Assembly: GCA_016176335.1 (NCBI GenBank)
Contig: JACOXI010000005.1
Span: 1 to 61,390 of the forward strand
DNA from: Candidatus Daviesbacteria bacterium
GTDB lineage: Bacteria > Patescibacteriota > Microgenomatia > Daviesbacterales > UBA10151
DNA: 61,390 nt
Direction of reading: 5' to 3'
Both the position numbers and the translations under genes were made by a program. Every line of letters begins with the position of its first letter. The stretch's first letter is position 1. This document shows, in pieces, positions 7,090 to 51,477 of this stretch. A model generated the notes under the pieces. It was given only the letters and a program-made list of their open reading frames with translations, was not told the DNA's origin and made no database searches.

Positions 7090-8316
7090 ATGAAGAAGAA
7101 ACCATATATGTTTTACAAAAATAACTTTAAGCGAAATCGTTTTTCAAACAGATTTTCAAACCGCAGGCCTTTTCCCAATGGCCCGAGGAGGGATCCCAGG
7201 AGAAGCAAACTGGAAGGCGCAGATATAAATATGTTTATTAAAAAAGCTGCTCCATTGGCCCAGGAAGAAGAATTGATAGTCCAAAACAGTTTTGCAGATT
7301 TTAATATTTCCGATAATTTAGCGCAAAATATTTTAAAGCATGGCTATACTCAACCTACACCAATACAATCACAAGCAATAAAACCGATTTTGGAAGGCAG
7401 GGATGTTATTGGTCTGGCCGCAACAGGTACGGGTAAAACCGCAGCTTTCCTAATCCCTCTAATAGATAAGGTCTTTAAAAACAGAGACCAAAAAGTTTTA
7501 ATCATTGCCCCAACCCGAGAGTTGGCTGTCCAAATCAACGAAGAGTTAAGAAGCTTTACTTGGGGCATGGGTATCTATTCGGCCTCAATCATCGGCGGCT
7601 CAAATATGCAAAGACAAATACAGGATATTAGAAGAAACTCCCAATTTGTAATTGCCACCCCCGGCAGGCTAAAAGATCTGATTGAAAGAAAAATAATATA
7701 TTTACAGGATTATTCAAATATTGTTTTGGATGAGGTTGATTTAATGGTAGATATAGGGTTTATTAATGATGTTAAATATTTTATATCTTTAATGCCAAAG
7801 GTTCGCCAGTCATTATTCTTCTCGGCCACAATTCCGCCCAGAGTACAAGAGATTTTACGATCATTTGTAACAAACCCTGTCACTTTATCCGTTAAATTGC
7901 AAGACACTCCTGAAAATGTTGAACAGGACATTGTCAGAGTACAAAATCCTGCCAAAAAAATGGATCAGCTGCACGACCTTTTGATTAAAGACGGTTTTGA
8001 TAAGGTATTAATTTTTGGCCGTACCAAACATGGGATTGAAAAAATGAATCAAGAATTAACTATCAGAGGATTTAAAACAGGGGCGCTTCACGGTAATAAG
8101 AGACAAAGCCAGCGAAGAAGAATACTGGAAGATTTCAAAAGAGATGAGATTCAAATACTTTTGGCAACAGATGTTGCCTCCCGTGGATTGGATATTGACA
8201 ATGTAACTCATGTTATAAATTATGATTTACCCCAAACTTACAATGATTATATTCACAGAATCGGCAGAACAGGAAGGGCTGGGAAAATTGGCACCGCCCT
8301 AACCTTCATCGGATAG
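7090..8316 (+). CDS. DEAD-box RNA helicase (RhlE/CshA-like); start may be ATG 7108
   Basis: Q motif GYTQPTPIQ, ATGTGKT, PTRELA, TPGRL, DEVD, SAT, HRIGRTGRAG. Confidence 0.97.
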   Translation: MKKKPYMFYKNNFKRNRFSNRFSNRRPFPNGPRRDPRRSKLEGADINMFIKKAAPLAQEEELIVQNSFADFNISDNLAQNILKHGYTQPTPIQSQAIKPILEGRDVIGLAATGTGKTAAFLIPLIDKVFKNRDQKVLIIAPTRELAVQINEELRSFTWGMGIYSASIIGGSNMQRQIQDIRRNSQFVIATPGRLKDLIERKIIYLQDYSNIVLDEVDLMVDIGFINDVKYFISLMPKVRQSLFFSATIPPRVQEILRSFVTNPVTLSVKLQDTPENVEQDIVRVQNPAKKMDQLHDLLIKDGFDKVLIFGRTKHGIEKMNQELTIRGFKTGALHGNKRQSQRRRILEDFKRDEIQILLATDVASRGLDIDNVTHVINYDLPQTYNDYIHRIGRTGRAGKIGTALTFIG

Positions 8317-45965: not shown

Positions 45966-46520
45966 TTATATTTGTATCAACTCTTCTTCTTTACCTTTTC
46001 CTAAATCATCAACCCCTGTCATCTTTTTATCCACCAACTCCTGTAGCAATTTTTCTCTTCTGAAAAATTCATCTTCCCCGTACTTACCATCCTCCTGCTC
46101 CCCTTTCCACTCATTTCTAAAATCCTGCCTGACTTGCCTAATTTCTACTCTTGCTTGTTCCATTTTTTGATGTAAAAGTTTTATAAATTCTTCTCTTCTT
46201 TCGGAAGTTAAAGGCGGGATAGGTAAACGAATTAAAGTACCTTCACTGGAAGGGTTTAACCCTAAATTTGCCTCCTGTATAGCTTTTATGACATTTTGTA
46301 AAATTGATGCATCCCAAACTTGAATTGTTAAAAGCGTGGGTTGGGGAGCGGAAATATTTCCAACTTCCATAAGTTTCATTTTACCTCCATAAGCATCCAC
46401 CAAAACATTTTCCACCAAAGCCGGATTGGCCCTGCCTGCCCGTATCCCTGCAATTTCCATCTTAAAATGATGCAAGGCTGCCTCTACTTTTTGATTAGGT
46501 TGTGATAGTACCGGGTCCAT
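45966..46520 (-). CDS. frr: Ribosome recycling factor
   Basis: IRAGRANPALV, IRLPIPPLTSERR; start moved to MDPVLS. Confidence 0.96.
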   Translation of the reverse strand: MDPVLSQPNQKVEAALHHFKMEIAGIRAGRANPALVENVLVDAYGGKMKLMEVGNISAPQPTLLTIQVWDASILQNVIKAIQEANLGLNPSSEGTLIRLPIPPLTSERREEFIKLLHQKMEQARVEIRQVRQDFRNEWKGEQEDGKYGEDEFFRREKLLQELVDKKMTGVDDLGKGKEEELIQI

Positions 46521-46534
46521 AATAATGTATAAAA

Positions 46535-46683
46535 GACAGCGAAGTCGCGAGCTAGAAAAAATGTAGTGCAGTTGAGCACATTCCAGACCCCATGTTTTCG
46601 AGGTCATTGCTCGGCGTGAAACAAACTCCAAGCGAGCGAGTCCCTACAGCGCGAGCGGTTTTTTCAGCCGTGACGAGCCGACT
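46535..46683. other. Structured ~149-nt intergenic element, copy A
   Basis: Shares terminal blocks and fold with 50695-50838. Confidence 0.7.
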
Positions 46684-47131
46684 AACCACCTAAAGCAATT
46701 CTTTCAAATCTGCCAATTTGAATATTTTCTCCCAATTTTCCAATAACGGATTTTATTAACTGATCACAAGTCAGGGAATTGTCTCTAATATACTCTTGCT
46801 TTAACAACTCCTCCAAAGAGGATGGATTCATGGAAGCAATCTGAAGAGCCAGTTCGTGCGCCAAATTTTTAAAATCCGAAGTTTGTGCCACAAAATCTGT
46901 CTCACAGAGAACTTCCACCAGAACTCCCACCTTACCATTGTGAGAATAGACCTCAACAATACCGTTCTTTACTTCCCTGTCTGCTTTTTGAGCAGATTTT
47001 TCAATTCCTTTCTCTTTAAGATAAACTTTAGCCTTTGCCAAATCCCCTAAAGATTTGGCCAATGCCTCTTTGCAATCGGCAATTCCCGCGCCAGTCTGTT
47101 CACGCAGTTTTTTTATTAAATCTAAGTTCAT
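46682..47131 (-). CDS. tsf: Elongation factor Ts (short form)
   Basis: LREQTGAGIADCKEAL, VEVLCETDFVA, LGENIQIGRFER. Confidence 0.96.
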   Translation of the reverse strand: MNLDLIKKLREQTGAGIADCKEALAKSLGDLAKAKVYLKEKGIEKSAQKADREVKNGIVEVYSHNGKVGVLVEVLCETDFVAQTSDFKNLAHELALQIASMNPSSLEELLKQEYIRDNSLTCDQLIKSVIGKLGENIQIGRFERIALGG

Positions 47132-47134
47132 ATA

Positions 47135-47974
47135 CTAAATCACCTTTCTTTCAAAATCCTTAACTGTGGCCTTCTCAATTTCCTCCTCTGCCACTGCCAC
47201 TTCCATCTTTACATCTTCCGGCAATTCCTCCTCCTGTGCTTTTTTCTCCGCTGCTTCCTTGTCCCGCGAAGCTTTAGCAGAGTAGGATTTTTTGCCCTCT
47301 TCATAAGCTTCTGCCACAGCCTCTGTTAACATTTTAATAGATTTTATGGCATCATCATTACCCGGAATCGGGTAATCAATTAATGTGGGGTCACAATTTG
47401 AGTCAGCTATAGCAACAACTTTTATACCCAGTTTTGCAGCCTCTTTAACAGCGATCTTATCAGATACCGCATCCACCACAAAAATGGCATCAGGCAATTC
47501 GTCCAAATCCAAAACCCCGCCCAAATCTTTTTGCAACTTGTCCATTCGCCGTTCTATCAATAATTGCTCTTTTTTGGTATATTTTGAAAGAGTGCCTTTT
47601 TCTTTTTGATCTTTAAACTCCTTTAGCTTCTTGATATTTTTCTTGACTTCCTCAAAATTAGTCAGAAAACCTCCTATCCATCGTTGTGTCAGAAAAGGGG
47701 CTTGAAGTTTTTTCGCCAGCTCTTCAACAATTCCTTGTGCCTGTTTTTTGGTACCTACAAAAAGTATAATCTTTCCCTCTTTGCCAAAATTATAAACAGC
47801 GCCAGTGGCTTCTGTAAGATATTTTTCCGATTGGGTCAAATCAATAATATGTACTCCCTCTCTGGCGCCATAAATATATGGTTTCATCCTGGGATGGCCA
47901 CGGCTAACCTGATGTCCAAAATGAACACCAGCTTCTAATAATTCCTGTAATGTTGGCAATTTATATGCTGACAT
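47135..47974 (-). CDS. rpsB: 30S ribosomal protein uS2
   Basis: LLEAGVHFGH, FVGTKKQA, RWIGGFLTNF, PIPGNDDAIKS. Confidence 0.98.
   Translation of the reverse strand: MSAYKLPTLQELLEAGVHFGHQVSRGHPRMKPYIYGAREGVHIIDLTQSEKYLTEATGAVYNFGKEGKIILFVGTKKQAQGIVEELAKKLQAPFLTQRWIGGFLTNFEEVKKNIKKLKEFKDQKEKGTLSKYTKKEQLLIERRMDKLQKDLGGVLDLDELPDAIFVVDAVSDKIAVKEAAKLGIKVVAIADSNCDPTLIDYPIPGNDDAIKSIKMLTEAVAEAYEEGKKSYSAKASRDKEAAEKKAQEEELPEDVKMEVAVAEEEIEKATVKDFERKVI
47258..47287. repeat. REP-like palindrome in frame in the rpsB tail
   Basis: CTTGTCCCGCGAAGCTTTAGCAGAGTAGGA, encoding SYSAKASRDK; related to 43863-43889. Confidence 0.65.
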
Positions 47975-48070
47975 AGTCTCTTATCCTCCCCGTAATGCTG
48001 TGGTCAGAGACTTAAAAAACTACGGGTGTGTAATTGAGGTTATTTTAACAACCAAAGCCCGATAAATCAA
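47975..48070 (-). promoter_or_regulatory. rpsB promoter and structured leader
   Basis: TTGATT-17-TAAAAT; ACACACCCGTA..TACGGGGAGG; AGTCTCT..AGAGACT. Confidence 0.65.
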
Positions 48071-48121
48071 GTCGTAGAAAGTTAGAGTGTATCAGCTTCT
48101 CCTTTGTTATATAATTTCCTC

Positions 48122-48586
48122 ATGCTAAAGCTAAGAAGGTATCAAGCCGCAGACAAACTCGTCATCTGGCGACTGCATAGACTGGCCATAGGAGATATTG
48201 ACCTAAACCCCCGTTACAAATATCCTTGGGAAAAGGATTTGGATGATATAGAAACTACCTACCTTGAGGGAGGTGATTTTTTAATAGGTGAAATCATGGG
48301 AAAAATTGTGGCCATGGGGGCTTTTAGAAAAATAAATAATGAAACAGCCGAGATAAAAAGAATGAGGGTTCATCCTGATTTTCAAAGAAGAGGATTTGGT
48401 CGAATAATCCTTGAAGAGCTTGAAACAAGAGCCAAAAAAATGGGATACAAGAAAATGGTAATGGATACCAGCGAGAAATGGATCCATGCTCAAAACTTTT
48501 ACATTAAAAACGGGTACAAAGAAACAGGCAGAAAAGTACTCCACAAAAGGTATCACGCCATTTATTACGAAAAAGATCTAAAATAA
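48122..48586 (+). CDS. GNAT acetyltransferase
   Basis: AEIKRMRVHPDFQRRGFG, FYIKNGY. Confidence 0.93.
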   Translation: MLKLRRYQAADKLVIWRLHRLAIGDIDLNPRYKYPWEKDLDDIETTYLEGGDFLIGEIMGKIVAMGAFRKINNETAEIKRMRVHPDFQRRGFGRIILEELETRAKKMGYKKMVMDTSEKWIHAQNFYIKNGYKETGRKVLHKRYHAIYYEKDLK

Positions 48587-48606
48587 AGGCTTTAAATTTT
48601 GGGCTG

Positions 48607-49092
48607 TTACATCTCAAAATCTAAAAATTTATACCTAAAACCTTCATGTTCCTGCCAATCTGATTCAAAAACCACCTTTTTAAAATCAGAATAATCCGGG
48701 AAAAAGACATCTCCTTCTATCTCTTTATCTATTTTAGTTAAATACAGCTTGTCAGCTAAAGGCAGGGCCTGTTTATAAATTTCTCCTCCGCCGATGACGA
48801 AAATCTCCTCGTCTCCGGGTTTACCTTGAGCAACGTTCAGACCTTCATCCAATGAATGAACAATAATACACCCCAATGCTCTGTAACCCGGTTCATGAGT
48901 GATCACAATATTTGTTCGACCTCCTAAAGCTTTGCCAATAGACTCATGGGTTTTTCTGCCCATAATGATAGGATGTCCCATGGTAATTTCTTTAAATCTT
49001 TTTAGCTCGGCCGGTATATACCAAGGAAGGCCTCCTTTTTTCCCAATGACTCTTTTCTTTCCTGCCACTGCTACAATGATGCTAATCTTCAT
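48607..49092 (-). CDS. folA: Dihydrofolate reductase
   Basis: LPWYIPAELKRFK, IIMGRKT, VIGGGEIY, GDVFFP. Confidence 0.97.
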   Translation of the reverse strand: MKISIIVAVAGKKRVIGKKGGLPWYIPAELKRFKEITMGHPIIMGRKTHESIGKALGGRTNIVITHEPGYRALGCIIVHSLDEGLNVAQGKPGDEEIFVIGGGEIYKQALPLADKLYLTKIDKEIEGDVFFPDYSDFKKVVFESDWQEHEGFRYKFLDFEM

Positions 49093-49097
49093 AGGTA

Positions 49098-49144
49098 AAT
49101 TTAGAATTTATAATTCATAATTTAATTCTGAATTCTAGATTCTC
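49098..49144. repeat. Heptamer array between thyA and folA
   Basis: TAATTCA TAATTTA ATTCTGA ATTCTAG ATTCT. Confidence 0.65.
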
Positions 49145-50122
49145 TCAAAAACCGCCTACCACTGTTACTTCTCCTTTAATTGGCGGGTAAGGATTGTATC
49201 CAACAAGTTCAAAATCTTCCAATTTAAAATCATCAATATTTTTAATTTTAGGATTAATTTTCATTTTCGGGAAAGGTCGAGGTGTCCTTTTAAGTTGTTC
49301 TTTAACAGCCTCAAAGTGGTTACTGTAAATATGAACATCGCCAAAAGTATGGACAAATTCGCCTGGTTTTAGCCCAACCACTTGAGCAAGCATCATGGTA
49401 AAAAGAGCATATGAGGCAATATTAAAAGGAACACCCAAGAAAGTGTCTGCTGACCGCTGATATAGCTGCAGAGATAATCTCCCTTTATTGACGTTAAACT
49501 GAAAAAGAGTATGGCAAGGAGGCAAAGCCATGGATTTTCCCTTTAAGGCCATCTCATAAATGAACTCCGGATTCCAGGCAGATACCACAATAGATTTTCT
49601 AAACGGCGTTGTTTTTAACTCGCTTATTGCCCAAGCCAGCTGGTCTATAACTCTGCCATCAGATGTTCTCCATCTCCTCCATTGCACTCCATACACATTG
49701 CCCAAATCCCCCCATTTTTTAACAAAAGGATCACTCTTTGGCAATTCCTTTATTTTCTGTATAAACTCTTCCTGTGTCATTAAGCTTTTCGCTTTTCGCT
49801 TTTCGCTTTTCGCCAGGACTACTCTGTAGCCCTTATAAGCCCATTCATCCCAAATGTGCACATCCTGATCAACCAGATACTTAATATTTGAATCTCCCTT
49901 TAAAAACCAAAGTAGCTCATGAATTATTCCTCTCAAAAAAACTTTTTTAGTAGTTAAAAGCGGAAAACCCACTGATAGATCAAACCTCATCTGTCTTCCG
50001 AAAACAGATTTGATATGTACCCCTGGATTATTGAATACTGGTTTATTAACCCCGTTTTTAAGGATATCTTGTAATAAATCTAAATATTGATACTCTTCAT
50101 GTCTAAACTTGTTGTTCGGCAT
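49145..50122 (-). CDS. thyA: Thymidylate synthase
   Basis: [45 protein letters not shown]. Confidence 0.98.
49784..49811. repeat. Perfect (GCTTTTC)x4 in frame in thyA
   Basis: Encodes [10 protein letters not shown]. Confidence 0.9.
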
Positions 50123-50687
50123 CTGTAGGACTTATTCTACCACCTTGATGCTGACCTCTGTAACTGACAGTTTGCCCTTCAATCTTAAAGAAAACTATGT
50201 TACAAATTCTAGCCCCCATTTGCAGCCTTACATCAAACTCACTCAAATTTTTTAATCCCATGGTAAGAGTTCCTTTGTATCCCGGATCGGTTTTAGAATT
50301 TAACAGCAAAAGTCCTGCTCTAAAAAGAGAGGTTCTGGGGAAAACTACCGGCATTAAATCCTTGGGCGTATTCAGCGACTCCACCGTGGATGCCAAATAA
50401 TACTCGCCTGATTTTATCACAACCCACTGCTGATTTCTTTTCCTCTTCTTAAATTCAGCCAGAACCTGTGTCTTCACACCCCTCCTTTTCCCTAGCACTA
50501 CTTGCCCTGAGCTTGTCGAAGGGTCCCCTTGTATAAATGCTCCACCTTGCACAATTTGATAAACAGCACCCAACCTCAAATCTATCCCTACACCTTCCGG
50601 ATTCTTAAGCTCTCTTTTGCCTAAATTTTTTACAAGAGAATGCTTTTTAATTCTTTTGTGAATTTCGTTAATACCAAGTACGCTCAT
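50103..50687 (-). CDS. dCTP deaminase/dUTPase-family protein
   Basis: [30 protein letters not shown]; start moved to MSVLG. Confidence 0.85.
50504..50523. repeat. REP-like palindrome in frame
   Basis: GCCCTGAGCTTGTCGAAGGG, encoding PSTSSGQ. Confidence 0.85.
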
Positions 50688-50694
50688 AAATATA

Positions 50695-50838
50695 AGTAGC
50701 GAAGTCAGCAGCGGCCAAAAAATGTTGAGGATTTTGTGCAATAGTACTCAATGTCTTTGAATATCTAAATCACAAAATTCTCACCAAGCGAGTAAGTTCC
50801 TACCGTGCGAGCGATTTTTTGCGCGCTGACGAGCTACT
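50695..50838. other. Structured 144-nt element, copy B
   Basis: AGTAGC/GCTACT, GTCAGC/GCTGAC, A6/T6 and GAGGATTTTGTG/CACAAAATTCTC arms. Confidence 0.7.
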
Positions 50839-51477
50839 TCTCTTCCCCGTTATATTTGATACTTCAGGCATATTACTACCCCCATATCTGTTATTAGGAG
50901 AATTTTTGTATGAACGGGACACAGGCGCTGCTAACTTTTCAAAAGAAAATGCACAAATTGGAGCTCCCTCATAAATCACCACTCTTTTACCTTTTAAAAA
51001 AGTGCCAAATTCCAAAACAGGATGACCATTCCAACCAGGGTCAAATCTGGCTGCTGTGGAATGAACCGCAATTCCCAAGCGGGCCAACGAACTTTTTCCA
51101 TGCAAATGTCCCACAATGTTATCCGGCAAAGTCAATTTTTCTTTGGTGGTGGCAATCACAAAATCTTTATCCGACAAAACAAAAGGCTGGCCCGGCTTTA
51201 GTTCAATCAGCTTCATCATAGATTCCATTTCTTGTTTGGTTGTATGCTTGGTGTCAATAATATCCCAGCCGTCACCAGTGAATACTCGAAGTTTATTTCC
51301 CAGATGAAAATCAATTGTCACCTCATCAACTGATTCTTCCCAGTTGTTAGGAAGAGGGTCAATTTTTATAATACCTTTTTTAATATAATCTTTGATAACC
51401 CAATCAGGCAAAGTTCCAACAATATCATGGACAGAAGATTTTTTTGAAGACTTGTTCTTTGGCATACTCTTTCTCAA
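50800..51477 (-). CDS. dcd: dCTP deaminase
   Basis: IDFHLGN, GKSSLARLGI, DPGWNG, ICAFSFE. Confidence 0.88.
   Translation of the reverse strand: MRKSMPKNKSSKKSSVHDIVGTLPDWVIKDYIKKGIIKIDPLPNNWEESVDEVTIDFHLGNKLRVFTGDGWDIIDTKHTTKQEMESMMKLIELKPGQPFVLSDKDFVIATTKEKLTLPDNIVGHLHGKSSLARLGIAVHSTAARFDPGWNGHPVLEFGTFLKGKRVVIYEGAPICAFSFEKLAAPVSRSYKNSPNNRYGGSNMPEVSNITGKRSSSSARKKSLAR

Follow-up and report, generated by a model that had tools for sequence, protein, structure and literature searches.

The window analysed here is a 61,390-nt stretch of DNA from a Ca. Daviesbacteria-like genome (Microgenomatia, CPR), in which two related segments of about 150 nt occupy spacers of minus-strand operons, and the question is what kind of element these segments represent. 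A preliminary description had located them at the tsf/frr and dcd2/dcd1 junctions and proposed an undescribed structured RNA motif or a non-autonomous mobile element. Our analysis supported the second alternative; the first is the less probable of the two. The two segments, copy A and copy B, are members of different subtypes of a single gene-less interspersed repeat family, which is probably a dispersed, mobile-type element defined by its structure and similar in kind to the REP and RPE repeats.

Two copies of one family in the window

Covariance-model matches were obtained at positions 46536-46682 (+) for copy A (111 bits) and 50696-50838 (+) for copy B (155 bits). Exactly two occurrences of the shared ends and of the 30-nt 3' block CCAAGCGAGNNAGTNCCTACNGNGCGAGCG were found in the window, at the two junctions initially reported, and an exhaustive model search with the filters off revealed no third copy in the window. 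A chance similarity or an assembly artefact is refuted by several observations, and we found no point in its favour: dinucleotide shuffles yielded 0 matches to the shared pattern, the sequence is present with 0 mismatches in independent public runs (copy A being covered by contigs of run X2), and 83 related copies were found elsewhere. The parts of the two copies and their flanking genes are as follows.

46534..46684, + strand: copy A, whole element (model match), filling the tsf/frr spacer
46539-46678, + strand: copy A core, from GCGAA to GAGC, with about 5 nt of P1 extension on each side
46539..46561, + strand: copy A closing stem, 5' arm (P1 GC, loop GAA, P2 GTCGCG-(A)-GCT, P3 AAAAAA)
46565..46627, + strand: copy A arm P4, of the GA-loop type (GTT-GA-GCAC ... 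GGCGT-GA-AAC)
46632..46656, + strand: copy A arm P5 (GC, GA·GA tandem loop, GCG, GT-loop-AC, then CGC, GA, GC; RNAalifold)
46659..46678, + strand: copy A closing stem, 3' arm (TTTTTT, C, AGC-CGTGAC, loop GA, P1 GC)
46682..47131, - strand: tsf (short, 149 aa), upstream of copy A, with its stop within the P1 extension
45966..46520, - strand: frr, downstream of copy A, with its ATG at 46518-46520, 13 nt past the P1 extension
50694..50839, + strand: copy B, whole element (model match; core 50699-50834), in the dcd2/dcd1 spacer
50699..50722, + strand: copy B 5' arm (GC, GAA, GTCAGC-(A)-GCG, GCC, AAAAAA)
50726..50783, + strand: copy B arm P4 (TGAGGATTTTGTG ... CACAAAATTCTCA), with the apical motif CTCAATGTCTTTGAA at 50747-50761
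50788..50812, + strand: copy B arm P5, with a symmetric tandem G·A loop (GC-GA-GTA ... TGC-GA-GC)
50815..50834, + strand: copy B 3' arm (TTTTTT, G, CGC-GCTGAC, GA, GC)
50800..51477, - strand: dcd2, dCTP deaminase-family paralogue, upstream of copy B
50103..50687, - strand: dcd1, second Dcd-fold paralogue, downstream of copy B, with its ATG at 50685-50687, 6 nt past the P1 extension

The stems had been described as different in sequence and yet able to pair, with a conserved GAA/GA internal loop, and this was confirmed: the 5' arms read GTCGCG-A-GCT in copy A and GTCAGC-A-GCG in copy B, three base pairs being changed on both sides, and both copies retain the GAA/GA loop, together with the bulged A. 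The central hairpins indeed differ between the copies but, contrary to the initial description, they are not simply unrelated. Each corresponds to a module type conserved in other genomes, GUU-GA-GCRC/GYGC-GA-AAC in copy A and UGAGGAUUUUGUG in copy B, and the two have an apical motif in common (ATGTTTTCGA in A, ATGTCTTTGA in B). In copy A this motif forms the loop at 46592-46601, the apical hairpin of P4 being GACC/GGTC, and its P4 module type was found in 15 distinct copies elsewhere.

The overlap with the stop of the upstream gene also held for both copies. Read as mRNA, the tsf stop codon (46682-46684) takes its G from copy A, whereas copy B contains the entire dcd2 stop (50800-50802): the dcd2 frame extends 38 nt into the element, such that its last 12 codons and the stop lie inside and the C-terminal SSSSARKKSLAR is encoded by copy B, with the mRNA strand of the P5 loop (GUAGGAAC) providing the TAG that ends the gene. 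All the surrounding genes are on the minus strand, and the strand on which the elements were initially written (+) is therefore antisense to them.

Family size, fold and sequence constraint

The covariance-model search proposed in the preliminary description identified 83 copies, 77 of them distinct, with strong covariation (cmsearch; 0.51 Mb of related DNA), and a pattern scan of metagenomes yielded at least 120 loci. Members of the family were found in Ca. Daviesbacteria-like genomes and in contigs from groundwater metagenomes, and every copy folds as a unit of its own. The closing stem, of about 25 bp, consists of P1, P2 with the bulged A, and P3 (A6/T6 or AAAGCA/TGCTTT); it is interrupted by the GAA/GA loop, and P1 carries the purine-rich 5' extension TAAAAGYR. 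A three-way junction tops this stem, from which arm P5 begins with a symmetric tandem G·A loop, GY-GA-G...C-GA-RC (GCGAG/CGAGC); arm P4 of the copy A subtype has an additional GA/GA loop, and the motif ACTWAATGATTCAGA is present at one arm tip. No gene was found inside any copy of the family, and matching-arm ends more than 200 nt apart were limited to neighbouring copies and GC-rich chance matches.

The predicted pairs were formed in 92.2% of the alignment cells, versus 70.2% after shuffling and 30-45% with slid partners, and 34 of 41 pairs were changed on both sides in the family alignment. Sequence-anchored counts, which are independent of the model, agreed with the model-based pairing: the first five P2 pairs were all paired in 87% of cognate arm combinations and in 32% of non-cognate ones. 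Covariation extended to the P1 extension (position one AT 37, GC 25; position two CG 30, TA 20) and to P5, where CG (38 copies), UA (34) and UG (5) occupy pair 189/251 and AU (30), CG (29) and GC (14) occupy pair 195/246. All four combinations of the P3 and P5 types were found, and arm modules thus recombine between subtypes. Neutral sites also vary far more than the sequence of the family: identity between copy B and the copies of other genomes is 80-82%, whether or not these lie at the same junction, whereas four-fold degenerate sites are 29-57% identical between the window and L003, L006 and L012.

No known family had been recognized at the outset, and our searches bore this out. At gathering thresholds, Rfam cmscan returned no match in the window; no match around copy A was better than E = 7, and ten further loci with family copies had none at E <= 1. 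There was no genuine match to the family in plasmid, phage and viral collections, and the literature search retrieved no paper describing it. The family, absent from every database and paper searched, is widespread in ultra-small groundwater bacteria.

Occupied and empty junctions

The tsf/frr junction was empty in 10 of the 13 relatives having this junction, with a TAATG overlap or a spacer of at most 13 nt. Empty sites, which the preliminary description had recommended seeking, thus exist in relatives, including one that is approximately 95% identical (single contig covering both flanks, run X10). In this relative, window positions 46527-46686 are replaced by 14 unrelated nt, and a site with 14 unrelated nt in place of 160 nt does not correspond to a clean excision or insertion. 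The dcd2/dcd1 junction was empty in five relatives, occupied by the type-1 subtype, that of copy B, in L012 and L107, occupied by the type-2 subtype in L003 and L009, and reduced to a 23-nt remnant in L001. The copy B subtype was found at a different junction in L006, and both L006 and L012 have copies at dcd1/thyA, where the genes overlap in other genomes. One 173-kb contig carried at least 8 copies, and a 1.02-Mb contig at least 6.

Copies have therefore been gained, lost and replaced at the stop/start junctions of operons, and a minority have become fixed in frame in terminal extensions of highly expressed proteins: in-frame copies that retain the fold were found within L1, NusG, S16 and L7/L12. 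Nested copies and remnants also occur. The consequences for the neighbouring genes are demonstrated in part, and include the replacement of stop codons and C-termini (tsf, dcd2) and the separation of stop/start pairs that once overlapped. It is the presence or absence of the element at orthologous junctions, the many unrelated junctions, the in-frame and nested copies, the remnants and the lack of an internal gene that support a mobile nature. We saw neither a transposition event nor a target-site duplication, and no partner enzyme was encountered.

Strand and orientation

The strand bearing the G·A loops is the + strand of the window and is hereafter called the G·A strand. With RNA parameters, its fold was better than that of the complement in 57 of 76 copies (p = 8e-7); DNA parameters gave the same outcome in 62 of 73 (p = 2e-10). 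Mismatches within helices were purine·purine in 138 cells and pyrimidine·pyrimidine in 15. However, G·U pairs (70) were not commoner than A·C cells (80) in the alignment, which was fitted to the model, and the minimum-energy folds of the complement contained slightly more G·U pairs (3.4 versus 2.7), so the classical strand test for RNA does not favour the G·A strand. Most flanking genes have the opposite orientation, by 48:7 for those 5' of the element and 39:9 for those 3' of it, the G·A strand being antisense to them in about 85% of intergenic copies. In the mRNA sense, the core usually follows the upstream stop by 5-15 nt and precedes the next ATG by 8-30 nt, indicating that the P1 extension spans the stop codon and the pre-start region. 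The A-rich box TAAAAG immediately precedes the element on the G·A strand.

With this orientation, the element might act in cis as an RNA of the operon mRNA, formed by the complement of the G·A strand, the long hairpin placing the upstream stop beside the downstream start; its role could be in processing or stability, in partial termination or in translational coupling. Usefulness, or at least neutrality, at operon junctions could account for the spread of such an RNA, and this reading would be compatible with mobility. The presence of the complement in the mRNA, the spacing to the stop and the ATG, its slight excess of G·U pairs, the identity of 80-82% across genomes with saturated synonymous sites and the occupation of dcd2/dcd1 in at least 5 genomes are consistent with this reading, and strong constraint, recurrence at the same junctions and a fixed orientation to transcription would fit it too. 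We nevertheless consider it unlikely, since it is the other strand that folds better, and on the complement the conserved internal loops, three in number, read UC/UUC and UC/UC and provide no recognized stable motif. The genes next to the element have no functional relationship to one another (tsf/frr, dcd, thyA, a phosphoribosyltransferase, ruvX, ribosomal proteins), the element is missing from the same junctions in many close relatives, and the in-frame copies have the opposite orientation. Moreover, a terminator scan detected no convincing terminator: copy A and its surroundings gave no match, and those of copy B a single weak one of 5 bp.

The better folding of the G·A strand would instead suit a separate RNA, an antisense small RNA, a protein-binding scaffold or a small self-cleaving ribozyme, with the three-way junction and its sheared G·A loops as the active or recognized core. 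The conserved covarying fold with three purine-rich internal loops and a conserved apical loop, the TAAAAG box directly 5' of the element and the retention of the fold even in translated sense copies point in this direction. However, a promoter scan of the G·A strand around both copies gave no match, the element has no terminator of its own, no Rfam model matched (hammerhead, twister, pistol and hatchet included) and no RNA run containing the sequence was found; we therefore regard a separate RNA as very unlikely. The letters CUGANGA...GAA...GUC recall a hammerhead ribozyme, which we rejected: the position equivalent to C3 may be C, G or A and takes part in an ordinary covarying pair, and the corresponding loop connects only two helices.

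The orientation could also reflect replication, the element being a signal in single-stranded DNA or a replication-polar element recognized at the fork on one of the template strands (for instance for priming or processing, or as a unit copied into the nascent lagging strand), which would explain its placement on one compositional strand. Among 40 loci of at least 4 kb, the G·A strand coincided with the C-rich strand in 38, and copies on the 1.02-Mb contig are oriented + near 226 kb and - at 411-594 kb, the skew flipping alongside. Gene strand and GC skew co-vary, however, so the orientation rule is confounded; a single locus, L154, separates them, its nearest gene being on the same strand as the element with the skew rule still kept. 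The in-frame sense copies of L099 and L148 are on the G-rich strand, which argues against strictly replication-polar insertion, and neither a density of 8 or more copies per 173 kb, concentrated at operon junctions, nor an occurrence in coding frames would be expected of a replication signal. This explanation therefore appears scarcely probable.

Relationship to known repeat systems

The closest parallels to a dispersed element defined by its structure are provided by gene-less repeats of other bacteria. RPE are self-complementary gene-less repeats of about 100-150 nt, without a known transposase, that form several subfamilies in a reduced genome and are found both in intergenic regions and in frame inside housekeeping protein genes, to which they add hydrophilic surface peptides. 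These Rickettsia palindromic elements were reportedly described by Ogata et al. in 2000. The Daviesbacteria family resembles them in size, self-complementarity, lack of a gene, number of subfamilies and in-frame copies. However, it belongs to an unrelated lineage and has no known sequence relation to RPE; most of its copies are intergenic, exactly from stop to start, with a strong orientation bias, and neither window copy is in frame within a gene body. RPE are also simple palindromes, unlike the Daviesbacteria three-way junction, in which sheared G·A loops and the apical motif are conserved.

REP, BIME and REPIN sequences are mobilized by RAYT transposases (Y1, IS200-like), encoded once per genome. 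REPs are short imperfect palindromes (20-40 nt), often arranged in inverted pairs, and their head carries a conserved GTAG; they are recognized as folded ssDNA, can influence mRNA stability and are conserved over long times by the trans-acting RAYT enzyme. These are likewise short structured extragenic repeats at operon junctions and gene ends, but the Daviesbacteria unit is about 150 nt long, single and branched, with GTAG only in the P5 loop of one subtype. ERIC, Correia, BOX and RUP are MITE-like bacterial repeats, BOX being modular. The size of 100-160 nt, the pairing ends, the transcribed intergenic sites and the mosaic subfamilies, as in BOX, are shared with this group. By contrast, we found no target-site duplication, matching insertion sequence or gene-bearing full-length copy in the Daviesbacteria family, the internal constraint of which is much stronger and the orientation bias strict.

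Palindrome-associated derivatives of IS200/IS605 have a separate hairpin near each end. Ton-Hoang et al. are said to have reported in 2010 that IS200/IS605 transposition is single-stranded and linked to the lagging strand. The derivatives and the Daviesbacteria element have in common the absence of genes, recognition as folded ssDNA (putative here), a strand-specific chromosomal orientation, the lack of target duplication and a short conserved motif abutting one end, here TAAAAG, 5' of the G·A strand. However, the two ends of the Daviesbacteria element pair together, and it is the complement of the better-folding strand that should be exposed on the lagging-strand template. Integron attC sites are also defined by structure, as long imperfect one-strand hairpins with an unpaired spacer, extrahelical bases and a variable terminal structure, but the Daviesbacteria element lacks the R''/R' core (RYYYAAC / GTTRRRY), has no integrase context and is flanked by syntenic housekeeping genes rather than cassettes.

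Proposed mode of spread

For a mobile-type element of this kind, we tentatively suggest that the folded single strand may be the recognition unit of a trans-acting, structure-specific enzyme encoded at another locus of the genome, which would move or copy the unit as ssDNA. A RAYT/IS200-like Y1 enzyme or a small ssDNA nuclease would be candidates, and the acting strand is taken to be the G·A strand. Selection would then filter the insertions, leaving, between genes, almost only copies with the G·A strand antisense to the operon and exactly between the stop and the next start, and, within genes, only sense copies with an open, hydrophilic reading frame.

The two copies in the window and their gene context

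The element is a folded repeat of about 150 nt that contains no gene, and the window carries two copies of it:

Copy A: window 46534-46684, plus strand, tsf/frr spacer
Copy B: window 50694-50839, plus strand, spacer between the Dcd-fold paralogues dcd2 and dcd1

The likeness of the two segments, first noted in a preliminary description made without database searches, is real: the 61-kb window has just two occurrences each of their shared ends (AGCGAAGTC ... GACGAGC) and of a shared 30-nt block (CCAAGCGAGNNAGTNCCTACNGNGCGAGCG), and dinucleotide shuffles have none. The probability that this resemblance arose by chance is practically negligible. Contigs of an independent public groundwater run match copy A with 0 mismatches, so it is not an assembly artefact. 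No third copy was found in the window by blastn or by an exhaustive covariance-model search with the filters off.

The genes flanking both copies all lie on the minus strand, and the strand on which the element was originally described is therefore antisense to the operons. In the mRNA sense, the order is dcd2 - copy B - dcd1 - thyA - folA - ... - rpsB - tsf - copy A - frr. The first base of copy A is the G of the tsf stop codon, and about 13 nt separate its end from the frr ATG; the dcd2 frame enters copy B for 38 nt, with copy B supplying SSSSARKKSLAR and the stop codon, and dcd1 starts 6 nt past the copy. As separate observations on this locus, EF-Ts is short (149 aa, window 46682-47131), and the tsf-frr interval lacks pyrH both in the window and in every relative that has this junction (among L001-L014, the relatives compared below).

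Fold, modules and covariation

The strand that carries the conserved G·A loops (hereafter the G·A strand, the plus strand of the window for copies A and B) folds into a closing stem, P1-P3, topped by a three-way junction; the core runs from GCGAA to GAGC.

Parts of the fold, read on the window plus strand
P1: purine-rich 5' arm TAAAAGYR, then GC
Internal loop: GAA/GA
P2: 5-6 bp, a bulged A, 3 bp
P3: A6/T6 or AAAGCA/TGCTTT
Three-way junction: above P3, carrying P4 and P5
P4: several module types
P5: starts GY-GA-G ... C-GA-RC, a symmetric tandem G·A loop
Apical motif ACTWAATGATTCAGA: at the P4 tip when P5 is short, at the P5 tip when P5 is long

A pattern built from copies A and B alone had no match in genome contigs; relatives vary at CCTAC (e.g., TCTAC in L012, one of these relatives). 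A pattern built from six copies identified at least 120 loci in metagenome contigs, with about one third of the listed loci being GC-rich chance matches. The covariance model proposed in the preliminary description, built here from four copies, yielded 83 copies (77 distinct) in 0.51 Mb, with E-values that are rough owing to a shortened calibration, and in metagenome contigs that carry no taxonomy. A 173-kb contig contained at least eight copies and a 1.02-Mb contig at least six.

In the model-derived alignment, which is biased towards the model, standard pairs were found in 92.2% of cells, as opposed to 70.2% with shuffled partners and 30-45% with slid partners, and 34 of the 41 pairs displayed two-sided changes, consistent with the covarying stems initially proposed. 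As this alignment was fitted to the model, the counts were repeated with plain sequence anchors, and the first five P2 pairs all paired in 87% of cognate arm combinations but in only 32% of non-cognate combinations. P1 extends about 5 bp past GC/GC and covaries (AT 37 / GC 25, then CG 30 / TA 20), with G·A frequent at the third position of the extension. A TATAA-like box 5' of the G·A strand was rejected as a promoter, its conserved part, TAAAAGYR, pairing as the P1 extension.

The central hairpins of the two copies had been considered unrelated, but this was not borne out: the P4 of copy A is of a 'GA-loop' type (GUU-GA-GCRC / GYGC-GA-AAC), giving this copy three G·A loops, and the central hairpin of copy B is of the UGAGGAUUUUGUG type, so the two copies carry two conserved module types. 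The P3, P4 and P5 types combine as mosaics among copies, indicating recombination among them.

Occupied and empty junctions in relatives

Relatives were compared through the rpsB neighbourhood in Daviesbacteria-like MAGs (L001-L014; RpsB identity 65-78%, same gene order). Empty sites, which the first description recommended seeking, exist at tsf/frr, at dcd2/dcd1 and in a relative about 95% identical to the window. Of the 13 relatives that have the tsf/frr junction, 10 show a TAATG overlap or a spacer of no more than 13 nt there, and L001, L012 and L014 have unrelated hairpins or heptamer repeats instead. The dcd2/dcd1 junction is element-free in five relatives, and contains the copy B subtype (type-1) in L012, the second subtype (type-2) in L003 and L009, and only a 23-nt remnant in L001. 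At dcd1/thyA, L006 and L012 have copies, and the genes overlap in other genomes. In a contig from public run X10, both flanks match the window at about 95% identity (13 differences/327 nt and 27/414), and 14 unrelated nucleotides stand where the window has 46527-46686. The element thus comes or goes over short times, and the junctions it occupies also differ from genome to genome.

At the dcd2/dcd1 junction of the metagenome locus L107 (5650-5720, minus strand), the final ~35 nt of a type-2 copy (CGGTGCTTTTTGCCAT..GAG) immediately follow a full type-1 copy. One subtype has inserted into, or replaced, the other, and copies can therefore be nested or replaced. Other hairpins unrelated to the element, AT-rich or made of 7-nt repeats, are present at the tsf/frr and dcd2/dcd1 junctions of other Daviesbacteria genomes, and several repeat families seem to land generally at stop/start junctions.

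Other hairpins at tsf/frr and dcd2/dcd1
L001: 11275-11345
L012: 11287-11421
L014: 11297-11412 and ~7745-7880
L006: 2055-2145
L008: ~7435-7545

Placement, orientation and in-frame copies

Position and orientation of copies relative to neighbouring genes
Gene strand at the 5' flank, opposite to : same as the G·A strand: 48 : 7
Gene strand at the 3' flank, opposite to : same as the G·A strand: 39 : 9
Upstream ORF stop near or inside the core: 53/76 copies; usually 5-15 nt before the core in the mRNA sense, within the element in 12 cases
Downstream start codon close by: 53/76 copies; ATG usually 8-30 nt past the core in the mRNA sense

Placement between stop and start codons bears on a reading of the element as a useful cis-acting mRNA element, involved in stability, processing or coupling. 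Such a role is compatible with mobility, but we consider it unlikely on the whole; the neighbouring genes are functionally unrelated (tsf, frr, dcd, thyA, a phosphoribosyltransferase gene and ruvX).

Nine copies lie in frame and in the sense orientation in the genes for L1 (four contigs, two subtypes), NusG, S16, L7/L12 and one unidentified protein, where they extend highly expressed proteins at the N or C terminus. The encoded peptides resemble AKSE...EVE...SE..GEASGASRPDEP, and 77-100% of the cells per helix remain paired. Such in-frame placement is a feature of the family and not of copies A and B.

In-frame sense copies in identified genes
rplA: L099 1568-1710; L117 358-503; L148 3375-3541; L086 774-916
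nusG: L118 3376-3542
rpsP: L173 278-423; L087 1743-1888
rplL: L196 2279-2424

A conserved reading frame or conserved stop codons were rejected as a general property of the element: open-frame numbers equal those of shuffled cores, and the reading frame does not, therefore, explain the orientation. In 38 of 40 loci, the strand richer in C is also the one with the G·A loops, and element orientation and skew flip together on the 1.02-Mb contig. A replication-linked signal acting as single-stranded DNA would fit this bias, but compositional strand is confounded with gene direction, the sole locus separating the two (L154) favouring compositional strand, and the in-frame copies of L099 and L148 break the rule; we regard such a signal as highly improbable.

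Constraint and acting strand

Four-fold degenerate sites are essentially saturated between the window and L003, L006 and L012 (29-57% identical). Nevertheless, copy B shares 80-82% identity with copies from other genomes, regardless of whether these occupy its own junction or another one, and the copies are thus not decaying neutral insertions. Either the sequence is read by something, or copies are continually renewed from constrained sources.

Fold prediction favours the G·A strand over its complement in 57 of 76 copies under RNA parameters and in 62 of 73 under DNA parameters. Helix mismatches are purine·purine in 138 cells and pyrimidine·pyrimidine in 15, and GCGAGC/GCGAGC is reportedly, from the work of SantaLucia and Turner, the classical sheared tandem G·A context. 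An independent RNA or ribozyme produced from the G·A strand would also have this strand as the folded one. However, the strand is antisense to the operons and G·U is no more common than A·C (70 and 80 cells, a count partly distorted by the shifting position of the bulge). A promoter scan around copies A and B detected no promoter-like site on the G·A strand. Among the public runs listed, no RNA-type run covered the copy B region, and the RNA-type run X17 consists of contigs only, with no strand direction. We consider an independent RNA to be very unlikely. The folded G·A strand is probably the selected structure, and would be more likely to act as single-stranded DNA than as RNA.

Comparison with known families

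An Rfam cmscan, one of the checks initially suggested, assigned no part of the window to an Rfam 15 family at gathering thresholds. The best match near copy A was PK-BYV (12.4 bits against a threshold of 50, E = 7.4), and ten loci with family copies gave nothing at E <= 1. The terminal letters CUGACGAGC...GCGAAGUC suggested a hammerhead, which has three helices, invariant C3-U4-G5-A6-N7-G8-A9 and G12-A13-A14, then A15.1-U16.1 and the cleavage site. Here, the GAA/GA loop lies between just two helices, P1 and P2; the C3 equivalent varies (C, G or A) and covaries with the opposite base as in any regular pair; the 15.1 equivalent is G or A, paired within P2; and no Rfam hammerhead model matches. 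Kink-turns have an asymmetric 5+2 loop, in which tandem sheared G·A pairs come after a bulge of three nucleotides, whereas the loops of the element, read from the sequence, are 3+2 (GAA/GA) and symmetric 2+2 (GA/GA). Integron attC sites carry the R''/R' core sites RYYYAAC ... GTTRRRY at the hairpin base, a position at which all copies have GCGAARTC ... GAYGAGC. Intrinsic terminators, GC-rich hairpins followed directly by a T run, were absent around copy A, and a weak 5-bp match inside copy B (minus strand) was no more than is found in shuffles.

Among mobile repeats, REP/REPIN units are imperfect palindromes of 20-40 nt with a conserved GTAG-type head; the element differs in form, being branched and about 150 nt long, with GTAGG only on the complement strand, in the short P5 loop of one subtype. 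As in MITEs, the ends are inverted repeats, pairing over about 25 bp (P1-P3) in the 77 distinct copies, but comparison with empty sites revealed no direct repeat, and hence no target-site duplication, at the boundaries of copies A and B or of relatives' copies. The flanks are unrelated past about 6 nt, and beyond this point cognate flanks are no more complementary than non-cognate flanks; the dcd2/dcd1 tails had prompted the idea, rejected here, that the arms are copied from neighbouring DNA. A search for matching ends 200-4000 nt apart in ~0.8 Mb of element-bearing loci recovered only neighbouring copies and GC-rich chance matches, and no autonomous copy was found among these loci. Viral contigs gave a single match, a GC-rich chance one, plasmid and phage collections gave none, and a search of the accessible literature found no publications on CPR or Daviesbacteria repeats.

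By analogy, the closest in kind are the Rickettsia RPEs, as in-frame gene-less palindromic elements, and REP/REPIN, as structured, constrained repeats mobilised in trans. The likeness to RPEs, whose in-frame copies keeping a nucleic-acid fold have counterparts in the family but not in copies A and B, is one of behaviour only. Unlike both, the element has a branched fold with conserved G·A loops, an apical motif, exact stop-to-start placement and an orientation bias.

Proposed mechanism and significance

Of the two interpretations originally offered, the non-autonomous mobile element is the one supported, in that the family consists of dispersed structured repeats that lack genes, come and go, have a modular make-up and are under strong constraint. 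Most likely, a trans-acting, structure-specific enzyme would recognise the fold and copy or move the element, and selection would keep only the copies harmless to operon expression, these being antisense and exactly stop-to-start, or in frame and sense in tolerant protein termini. A bolder version, which we judge improbable, is that a structure-guided copying or transposition system with no element-encoded protein has as its full recognition unit the three-way junction, together with its sheared G·A loops (up to three) and the conserved apical loop. A host or orphan enzyme would put the folded DNA or RNA strand into the stop/start junctions of operons, or catalysis would come from the three-way junction itself, which would make this a fold-defined, CPR-specific class of mobile elements.

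The genomes of CPR/Patescibacteria, of about 1 Mb, are usually called streamlined, and we know of almost no experimental genetics in these bacteria. In this supposedly streamlined lineage, many folded repeats of 150 nt lie at core-operon junctions (translation factors, dNTP metabolism) and even within ribosomal protein genes. The element alters stop codons and C-termini (tsf and dcd2 in the window) and breaks stop/start overlaps, and it will mislead gene calling, operon prediction and assembly; public-run contigs break within it. Identification of its reader would reveal a novel enzyme-repeat pairing or RNA function, and the symmetric GCGAG/CGAGC loops and the apical motif are handles for probing, pull-downs and genome-wide annotation.

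Paired copies and a GC-rich block in dcd1

Single genes (tsf, and dcd1 in three contigs) are flanked on both sides by copies in the same orientation, and recombination between such copies could delete or exchange the enclosed gene.

Same-orientation copies around one gene
L127: 307-450 and 910-1055
L160: 8067-8935
L091: 1736-2604
L012: 7488-8354

Separately, dcd1 (minus strand) contains an in-frame GC-rich block at window 50493-50530 (GGGGACCCTTCGACAAGCTCAGGGCAAG in the mRNA sense) that encodes 10 residues. It is missing in most other relatives, but L013 has a block of the same kind and L004 a shorter related stretch.
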